A stretch of DNA of 26,395 bases, taken from UHGV virus genome UHGV-0085321; one strand, 5' to 3'. How positions within the stretch are numbered: the first letter of the stretch is position 1; the number at the start of each line of letters is the position of its first letter. Made by a program: the position numbers. Shown piece by piece: positions 24,601 through 26,395 of the stretch. Source of the stretch: a virus.

Positions 24601-26395
24601 GGATATAGTCATTAAGCCAAAATTTAAAAGGGATATAAAAAAGGTTGCCAAGGATATTATTTTTAACCCGTCACCTCAATTTTCAGACATTAGCCTGCGG
24701 GCAAAAGATGAGGCCGGAGATATTTTAACAGAACATTATCTATCAGAAAAAGGCCATCTCTCAGCGCCTCTGAACAAGGTCACCAATGCTGAGATAGCTG
24801 AAGAGATGGCATATTGCTACGCAAGAATGAAAAGTGATATACTGGAATGTTTTAAAAGGCAGGTGGGCAAAGTTAAGGATTAATTATCAGGAGTAATTAT
24901 GCGGAACAGAATCATGCCTGGTGTTTACATAGTAATAATTCCTTACGTTATCGTAAGCATTTGCTATCTCCTTTTCCGCCACTACATTCCTGGTGTTTCT
25001 TTTTCAGCTCATAGAGATGGTCTTGGGGCGACATTGTCATCATATGCAGGAACCATGATTGCAATCCTGATTGCTGCCTTGACGTTTCTAATCGGAAGCA
25101 GAACGCGCCGACTGGCCAAGATTAGAGAGTATGGGTATATGACATCGGTAGTTATTGTCTATGCCCTTAGTTTTGTTGAGCTTGGAGCTTTGTTTTTCTG
25201 CGGGTTATTGCTTCTTTCCAGCATAAGCGGCTACATGATACCCACTATCGCCATCGGCATTGCCTCTGCATCGTTCATTCATATATGCATCCTTGTTTTC
25301 CAACTATATAATTTGACCAGAGAACAAGAATAACCCGGCCTCAGCGCCGGGTTTTCTTTGCCTCACAGACTTAACAACCGCACATGTGGTAAACCGCAAA
25401 CCAACACGCCAGCAAAATCATTCTTTCTCCACAACTGACCAGTCTTCAACCTTTACAAAAATAAATTTCCTTATATATCAAAATCATATTTCGTAGAGTT
25501 AATAAATCACAAAATTTCGTACCAATAGTTCTTGATAATTTCGAACTATTAGTTCATTATTATCGCCATCAGCAGGAAGCTGGAAGCCAAACGGAACAGA
25601 CTGGCAGGCTCTTTAAACAACGTCGAACACTCGACTACGTGGCTGAAAAGCCAGATCACCCAACCACATAAGCTGTGGGATGCAATGCCGAAGCAACCGT
25701 CTCAGGAGGGGCTTCGAGATTGCATCGCCAAAGTTTATTCGGGAGGAATCTATGTCCAGAAAAACAGAATTTAAAGGAACCGCAGCTTCTCGCCGTAGAG
25801 CTCGTCGTGCAAATCTGCAAAGTCAGGAGGCGATCAGCTCCGACAAGCTACACAGGCCAACCCCTTCACGAGTGGTCTTGCAATGCAAGCGCAAACCAGC
25901 AATGAGAGCAGAAGTGATAACTCTGACAACGTTGACCAGAAAATATGAAGGTTCAACTTGTCTTCCAAACGTAGCTCTTTACGCGGCAGGCTACCGGAAA
26001 TCAAAACAACTGACGGCGAGGTAATTATGGGTCAGGAAGAAAAATATGAGCTTAAAAAGCTCATTGGAGAAGACGCCATAGAAGAAATTGCAGCATTAAC
26101 AACAGCTATAAAGAATATTAGGTATGCGCTAAATACGCTTATCTCCTCATGCGACAAAAATAGCAGGGAATTTTTGATACTTGGCGCAGCTCTAGGAATA
26201 GTTGATGCGGCAACGCTTCACCTAATTACTCATGACGATATTCTTATTGAGCCGTATGAAACATTACTGCTTGTCAGGCAAAAAATGGCTGATGCCGCAG
26301 CAAATGGAGACCTTCAACTTTACATCGACTTAAGGAAAGTATTAAGGCGAATGGTCAGAACTGAAGGAGATATCCCCCTGACAAAGTAAGGGGGT

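Follow-up and report, generated by a model that had tools for sequence, protein, structure and literature searches.

hkaQ, a narrowly distributed accessory gene directly downstream of N in the early-left operon of lambdoid phages

Introduction

What is the function of a small gene that begins immediately behind the antitermination gene N in a lambdoid phage, and why should it be found there? In lambda, the interval after N holds the convergent gene sieB and then ral. SieB is membrane-bound and expressed by the prophage, and sieB also encodes, internally and in frame, the product Esc; ral lies beyond tL1 and would therefore be N-dependent. The window analysed here, a stretch of 26,395 nt from the virus genome UHGV-0085321, carries directly after N an open reading frame which a sequence-only reading had placed in this ral/sieB accessory position and had put forward as a candidate host-takeover or exclusion factor.

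The position itself was borne out by related phages. Besides the order seen in lambda, PhiR11_1 has N-region DNA 98% identical to that of the window and continues with SieB and Ral, and distant homologues of the window gene lie beside a convergent SieB. In VT2-Sakai, N-region DNA 95% identical to that of the window is followed by small ORFs and ea10. Here we ask what the gene is, how firmly it is tied to N and to the genes that follow it, and which function its sequence, context and predicted structure favour.

Results

The window gene is hkaQ, a member of a tiny family

The coding sequence occupies positions 26027-26389 on the plus strand (120 aa plus stop; ATG at 26027, TAA at 26387-26389) and is the last open reading frame of the window, which ends 6 nt past its stop codon. 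In tblastn comparisons, its product is 100% identical over 120 aa to HK629 gp43 (AFM76527.1) and 99.2% identical to HkaQ of HK620 (AAK28865.1, annotated in the record as 'unknown') and of HK630; an unannotated ORF of Stx1a_10051 is also 99.2% identical. On these matches the gene is hkaQ of HK620/HK629, an already catalogued hypothetical gene and not a new one. The initial label 'unknown gene' is thus apt for the annotated function but not for the gene, which had its name in HK620. The related statement that it has no recognisable family stands for the domain and defence collections, as neither HkaQ nor its relatives match Pfam or NCBIfam (0 matches, with none even at E<=10) and no PADLOC-DB defence family is hit by HkaQ at E<=1. 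It does not stand for phage protein families, since the function-unknown family PHROG 7374 is matched over residues 1-120 of 120 (E 1.2e-79) and annotated HK620/HK629 proteins exist.

In HK620, HK629 and HK630, hkaQ has the same place directly 3' of N and the same 2-nt junction as in the window, but the window pairs it with another N amino-terminal part and with the lambda rexAB cassette. A rexA-rexB-tImm block at 23901-25366, downstream of a cI-like gene at 23173-23880, is 99.9% identical to lambda, while the repressor gene and the operator/pL region that flank it have no nucleotide match to lambda. The rexAB genes thus appear to be a transplanted cassette, and the window phage is probably heteroimmune to lambda. 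The full mosaic of the window was not found in any phage, E. coli or IMG/VR record examined.

How widespread is hkaQ? Of 5426 complete E. coli genomes, 96 carry the gene, with a nucleotide identity of 95% or more in each case; the exact window protein occurs on 278 contigs of a large protein collection, and a HkaQ match is found in only 7 phage records. A search of a 5.8-billion-protein index and two profile searches, one of which covered 1.84 billion representatives, gave a handful of genuine relatives, and the HMM search over all 1.84 billion representatives contributed only about four. Long repeat proteins that the HMM search also returned (P0007, P0010 and P0011) were rejected as spurious short-motif matches. 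As far as these searches reach, the family is tiny and very narrow, with members in prophages of E. coli, Yersinia and Symbiopectobacterium.

Several forms of the protein can be distinguished. E. coli has the 120-aa form and a 130-aa C-terminal variant; the Logan contigs L005-L008 encode a 148-aa form with 64% identity; and a Symbiopectobacterium purcellii prophage, Yersinia pekkanenii and Logan/IMG-VR contigs supply short forms with 38-41% identity, which are 92-93 aa long (in one case annotated with 115 aa, an upstream TTG having been taken as the start). The only part that the short forms have in common with the others is a conserved core, residues 24-80 (26096-26266, plus strand), which reads AIxNIRxxL ... 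IVDAxTLHLxxHxDxLxEP in the alignments and has 24 invariant positions among six sequences from three genera.

Start codon and selection

The stop codon of N (TAA, 26022-26024) and the ATG of hkaQ are separated by 2 nt (TT). A Shine-Dalgarno sequence, GAGG, lies at 26018-26021 on the plus strand, 5 nt upstream of the ATG, within the terminal N codons GCG AGG TAA at N's Arg codon. The coordinates and this GAGG confirm the early description, in which the ORF has a Shine-Dalgarno sequence and follows the N stop at a distance of 2 nt. A longer in-frame start, TTG at 25958 (143 aa), was considered and rejected. Because the upstream extension in the hkaQ frame is not conserved in L007, a contig with the 148-aa form, while the N frame is, ATG 26027 is the start of hkaQ. 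Public calls of the window product with 148 or 158 aa are start-site artefacts that extend from an upstream ATG into N's alternative frame.

The gene is under purifying selection. dN/dS is 0.17 between the window and L007 (dS 1.56) and 0.25 between the short-form genes of L011 and L013, with dS ranging from 0.8 to 1.6 over the comparisons, and the reading frame is kept in homologues at 64% and at 38-41% (about 40%) identity. These two features, the kept frame and the dN/dS of 0.17-0.25, argue that hkaQ is no chance ORF. A very narrow family without any known domain is what might be expected of a chance or decaying frame that is merely kept by its linkage to N; against this stand the selection values at such dS, the conservation of frame, start geometry and 24 residues across three genera, and the 278 contigs with the exact protein. 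That explanation can be given next to no credence.

HkaQ compared with Ral, SieB and N

The genes with which HkaQ shares its position are the obvious candidates for its relatives. Lambda Ral is likewise a small dispensable accessory protein of the pL operon, encoded in the N-cIII interval, but it has 66 aa and its gene lies beyond sieB, whereas hkaQ follows N directly. There is no sequence homology between HkaQ and lambda Ral (hhalign probability 0.3%). Furthermore, hkaQ and ral occur together in three loci (L035, L042 and L044), so HkaQ is no simple substitute for Ral.

The likeness to SieB and Esc is one of place and possibly of role: the genomic slot is shared, short-form hkaQ abuts a convergent sieB, and an anti-SieB role would be analogous to that of Esc. 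Lambda sieB, however, is convergent to pL; hkaQ is a separate gene that reads in the direction of pL and begins 2 nt behind N, and its product shows no convincing transmembrane segment. Comparison of HkaQ with SieB of lambda or L013 gave no Pfam SieB match and hhalign probabilities of at most 0.2%.

With N proteins (PF25694), HkaQ has only the adjacency and the 3'/5' junction in common. No Pfam N family is matched at E<=10 and no PHROG N family; BLASTP finds no alignment to the N of the window or of lambda at E<=100; and HkaQ has no arginine-rich motif. The charges are opposite, HkaQ being mildly acidic (pI 5.2, with a mass of 13.5 kDa by rough calculation from 120 residues) and N strongly basic in comparison (pI 11.4). 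NCBI and UniRef name the window product 'antitermination N domain protein'. We found no support for this name, given the missing profile match and BLASTP alignment and an acidic versus a basic protein. To judge from all three comparisons, HkaQ belongs to none of the Ral, SieB and N families.

Profile and structure-prediction searches, which the sequence-only reading had recommended, thus yielded a family, PHROG 7374, but no functional lead, and the same was true of a PDB sequence-profile search and a fold search with HkaQ. Rfam has no RNA family in the window region; its only match is the cIII thermoregulator, in HK629. The library searched holds one relevant paper on hkaQ, in which the hkaP/hkaQ intergenic region served as a neutral insertion site with normal induction titres. 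A peptide-string literature search and the accessory-gene supplements of Silas et al. gave no HkaQ match.

hkaQ travels with the tail of N

The N gene of the window (25752-26024, plus strand; 90 aa) has a P22/H-19B-type C-terminus and matches Pfam PF25694 N_peptide (E 3.4e-32) and PHROG 271. Its last 21 codons, CLPNVALYAAGYRKSKQLTAR, plus the stop codon (25959-26024, plus strand), form the left edge of the hkaQ cassette and bear the hkaQ ribosome-binding site. The independent IMG/VR loci L021-L023 become homologous to the window at 25958/25959, that is, at the first codon of these 21 residues, and in 38 of 40 IMG/VR loci hkaQ is preceded by this 21-aa segment. Upstream of 25959, N differs among the phages with hkaQ; the N of HK620/HK629, for example, has a phage-21-like amino-terminal part.

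The junction itself, GCGAGGT(A/G)(A/G)-2/3 nt-ATG, is kept in all family members (E. coli, Logan contigs, the 40 IMG/VR loci, Yersinia pekkanenii and Symbiopectobacterium). It reads GCGAGGTAAttATG in the window and all E. coli copies, GCGAGGTAAatATG in L007, GCGAGGTAGgtATG in the Yersinia locus L063, GCGAGGTGAgtATG in L013 and GCGAGGTGAaatATG in the Symbiopectobacterium locus L011; the geometry is constant, and the stop codon and spacer bases vary.

L013 has a lambda-type N with a stop of its own, then a 21-codon remnant of a P22-type N tail, CLPQVALYAAGHRKSVNITAR with its stop codon (positions 1848-1913 of that contig), and then the hkaQ-like ATG. The remnant is untranslated, and a degenerate copy of it is present in L011 at about 7960-7999. 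It resembles the fossil of an N-gene swap that retained the ribosome-binding site of hkaQ. In the L007 contig, a second N-annotated gene is found about 1 kb downstream of the N_peptide-type N (2652-2948, and also L005 8622-8918; 98 aa, Pfam Phage_N_antitermin, PHROG 25091), which places two 'N' families in one pL operon.

Across differing N amino-terminal parts, immunity regions and downstream genes, the N tail and hkaQ thus travel as one cassette. This is most simply explained if the ribosome-binding site of hkaQ, embedded in the tail, keeps the two together.

Could HkaQ instead act on N? As a regulator it would modulate the antitermination that depends on N, or the stability of N; its binding partner might, for example, be N itself, a Nus factor, RNA polymerase or Lon. 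hkaQ is the first gene after N in all members, N is its sole invariant neighbour, and the 2-3 nt geometry holds in E. coli, Yersinia and Symbiopectobacterium alike; the NCBI/UniRef name would also fit. The reverse association, however, is loose: a query spanning rexB, pL and N matched about 1489 E. coli genomes, most of the listed matches covering the N region only, versus 96 genomes with hkaQ, and most matches to the window's N region stop at the N stop, without hkaQ. In addition, the dN/dS of 0.25 was obtained between two lineages with lambda-type N, in which the P22-type tail is only a remnant, so the function of HkaQ seems to be independent of that tail, and the case for a functional partnership with N is weakened accordingly. 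The coupling is more simply explained by hkaQ borrowing a ribosome-binding site from N, and HkaQ has no similarity to any N family. On this balance, we regard a regulator of N as quite improbable.

Predicted expression with N from pL

A pL-like promoter, TTGATA-17-CATTAT, was assigned tentatively from a consensus scan at 25532-25560 (plus strand). Three ATTTCG[TA]A repeats lie around it, at 25488, 25514 and 25538, and may act as operators. This was the only promoter-like site in the scan upstream of N and hkaQ, with none between pL and the hkaQ start; nor did the scan find a plus-strand terminator-like site from pL to the end of the window. In HK620, the annotated tL1 lies downstream of hkaQ, inside hkaP. 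Because no terminator separates pL from the hkaQ stop and tL1 of HK620 lies beyond the gene, hkaQ should be co-transcribed with N on an immediate-early, N-independent message, and its translation probably keeps pace with that of N, through coupling or re-initiation.

The gene should also be silent in a repressed prophage, since it has no promoter of its own and the pL operon is under repressor control. For the same reasons, exclusion by a prophage-expressed factor would be the less likely half of the suggestion made from sequence at the outset.

A hairpin, CCCCCU-9 nt-AGGGGG, spans the hkaQ stop codon (26374-26394; -11.1 kcal/mol, z -1.8). Its counterpart in L007 is stronger in both measures (-14.6 kcal/mol, z -3.0), and the L007 protein reads on for 28 more codons. 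The hairpin has no T-run and was rejected as a canonical terminator. It is absent in the 130-aa variant, whose breakpoints fall at query positions 355/376, with a breakpoint within the hairpin loop; the hairpin is a recombination breakpoint of the variant. A terminator-like hairpin on the minus strand at 26046-26064 was dismissed, as it is not conserved in L007.

A free-standing cassette with changing neighbours

As the window ends 6 nt past the hkaQ stop, the downstream context was read from related loci. In HK620, HK629, HK630 and 66 of the 96 E. coli genomes with hkaQ, the convergent gene hkaP follows 30 nt after hkaQ, and in E. coli genomes this hkaP allele is never found without hkaQ. The other 30 genomes have no hkaP; their next genes are on the same strand, namely a 52-aa ORF with a PHROG-1510 exclusion gene, ea10/DUF2528, or other hypotheticals. 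Among the 40 IMG/VR loci, HkaP follows in 14, the 130-aa variant and then the 52-aa ORF are found in 8, Ral follows directly in 2 and Ea10 directly in 2, and the rest have other genes; more than half have no convergent gene. Behind the 148-aa form lies a convergent GhoS-like gene (94 aa), and short-form hkaQ lies between N and a convergent, bona fide SieB gene (PF14163 / PHROG 1301) with which its 3' end overlaps. Each subtype (short, 120-aa and 148-aa) therefore has a different convergent partner, and at least six different downstream neighbours occur in all, including HkaP, SieB, the GhoS-like gene, Ral and Ea10.

HkaP (164 aa; 5394-5888, minus strand, in HK629, L001) contains a coiled coil as well as a CxxC...CxxC region and is assigned to PHROG 1244. 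It is not SieB-like, and its label in HK620, 'putative superinfection exclusion', was given by position. HkaP-family homologues (63% or about 27-30% identity) are found in many phage records without a HkaQ match; those at about 27-30% come from Pseudomonas Mu-like phages (D3112 orf25, DMS3 and JBD30) and Klebsiella phages. An obligate HkaQ-HkaP pair was consequently rejected, as 30 of 96 E. coli genomes and many IMG/VR loci with hkaQ have no HkaP, and HkaP homologues occur without HkaQ. Because its downstream neighbour varies, hkaQ is a free-standing cassette of the N-cIII accessory interval, which often, but not obligatorily, lies beside a convergent exclusion-type gene.

Upstream of the convergent gene (hkaP or sieB), a conserved non-coding element was noticed in HK629 (5905-5990), L011 (8885-8930) and L007 (2073-2100). 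It consists of two CTGTAGGGGT(A) repeats about 35 nt apart and 'cacgagaacc', common to the E. coli and Symbiopectobacterium prophages, and HK629 and L007 have the stretch gagcctgatgtggttaaaagacaggca of it in common. Rfam has no match to the element, which might represent either a promoter/operator that serves the exclusion gene or a small RNA belonging to it.

This arrangement raises the question of self-immunity. Early HkaQ might, in the manner of Esc, neutralise a convergent SieB, HkaP or GhoS-like abortive-infection or exclusion protein of its own or a related prophage. All short-form homologues are placed between N and a convergent SieB with overlapping 3' ends, the E. coli form has convergent hkaP in 66 of 96 genomes with an allele never seen without hkaQ, and the partner changes with the HkaQ subtype. 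Yet these partners are unrelated proteins, and no convergent gene is present in 30 of the 96 E. coli genomes or in more than half of the IMG/VR loci. HkaP-family homologues occur in phage records without a HkaQ match, and only 7 phage records have such a match at all; HkaQ has no sequence similarity to SieB, and SieB genes reportedly encode their own Esc. Weighing both sides, we consider a role of this kind unlikely.

The HkaQ protein: a soluble or a membrane factor?

The AlphaFold2 model of HkaQ is all-helical, with four helices, and of moderate quality only (pLDDT 73-75, pTM 0.45). Helices 1 and 2 form a hairpin, followed by a loop at residues 70-75, which is the most conserved yet the least confident part of the model. 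This invariant acidic/His loop, TLHLITHDDILIEPY, thus follows the helical hairpin within the conserved part of the protein. The product has no catalytic or nucleic-acid-binding signature.

Helix 2 (residues 49-67, FLILGAALGIVDAATLHLI) is markedly hydrophobic and invites the reading of HkaQ as a membrane-associated exclusion, abortive-infection or Kil-like toxic factor, in which this helix would cross the membrane once and present a small-xxx-small packing face. Its Kyte-Doolittle mean of 2.03 is closer to the RexB membrane control (2.39) than to soluble controls (<=1.2), a GxxxG motif lies within the segment, whose C-terminal flank is acidic, and the genomic slot is rich in exclusion genes. 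However, the additive Hessa insertion energy is +2.8 kcal/mol, compared with 0.0 for RexB, and the short forms are below the Kyte-Doolittle threshold (1.5), with insertion energies of +4.9 to +8.3 kcal/mol. Two invariant residues, an Asp and a His, lie within the segment, AlphaFold2 packs helix 2 against helix 1, and no promoter was seen from which a prophage could express the gene. A membrane factor is therefore improbable on our estimate, although the hydrophobicity of helix 2 leaves a membrane-associated role some likelihood.

Discussion

hkaQ is a real gene of the lambdoid early-left (pL) operon, but one that phages can do without. Which function would best account for such a gene? Our preferred reading, held tentatively and with somewhat less than even confidence, is that HkaQ is a counter-defence or host-takeover accessory factor that acts by binding a protein stoichiometrically. 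The protein would be made together with N immediately on infection or induction, before any terminator is reached; it would then bind a host or resident-prophage protein stoichiometrically in the first minutes of infection or induction, and it would belong to the functional class of its slot-mates Ral, Gam and Abc2. This proposal is based on a product that is small, helical, acidic, dispensable and, by prediction, immediately made, encoded in a slot of host-takeover and counter-defence genes.

A more specific version, possible but doubtful, is that HkaQ founds a narrow immediate-early family whose invariant motif, IVDAATLHLITHDDxLxEP, disarms a host or prophage immunity protein, for example one of the SieB/HkaP type. 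If so, HkaQ would either be an equivalent of P22 Esc that is encoded on its own, or represent a new anti-defence protein. Functions other than those listed here are left about a fifth of the total.

One new, if small, point concerns the way in which hkaQ hitch-hikes on the tail of N. The general lesson is a modest one: when a conserved 66-nt tail of an essential regulator contains the ribosome-binding site of an accessory gene, the gene can become tied to that tail, and if the regulator is then swapped, the tail is carried along as a remnant.

If a counter-defence or anti-exclusion role proves true, HkaQ would add a family to the repertoire of the N-cIII slot in lambdoid phages, Stx-converting phages included, and would provide a handle on the host or prophage immunity system that it targets. 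hkaQ is thus a reasonable, though unprioritised, candidate for an anti-defence screen.
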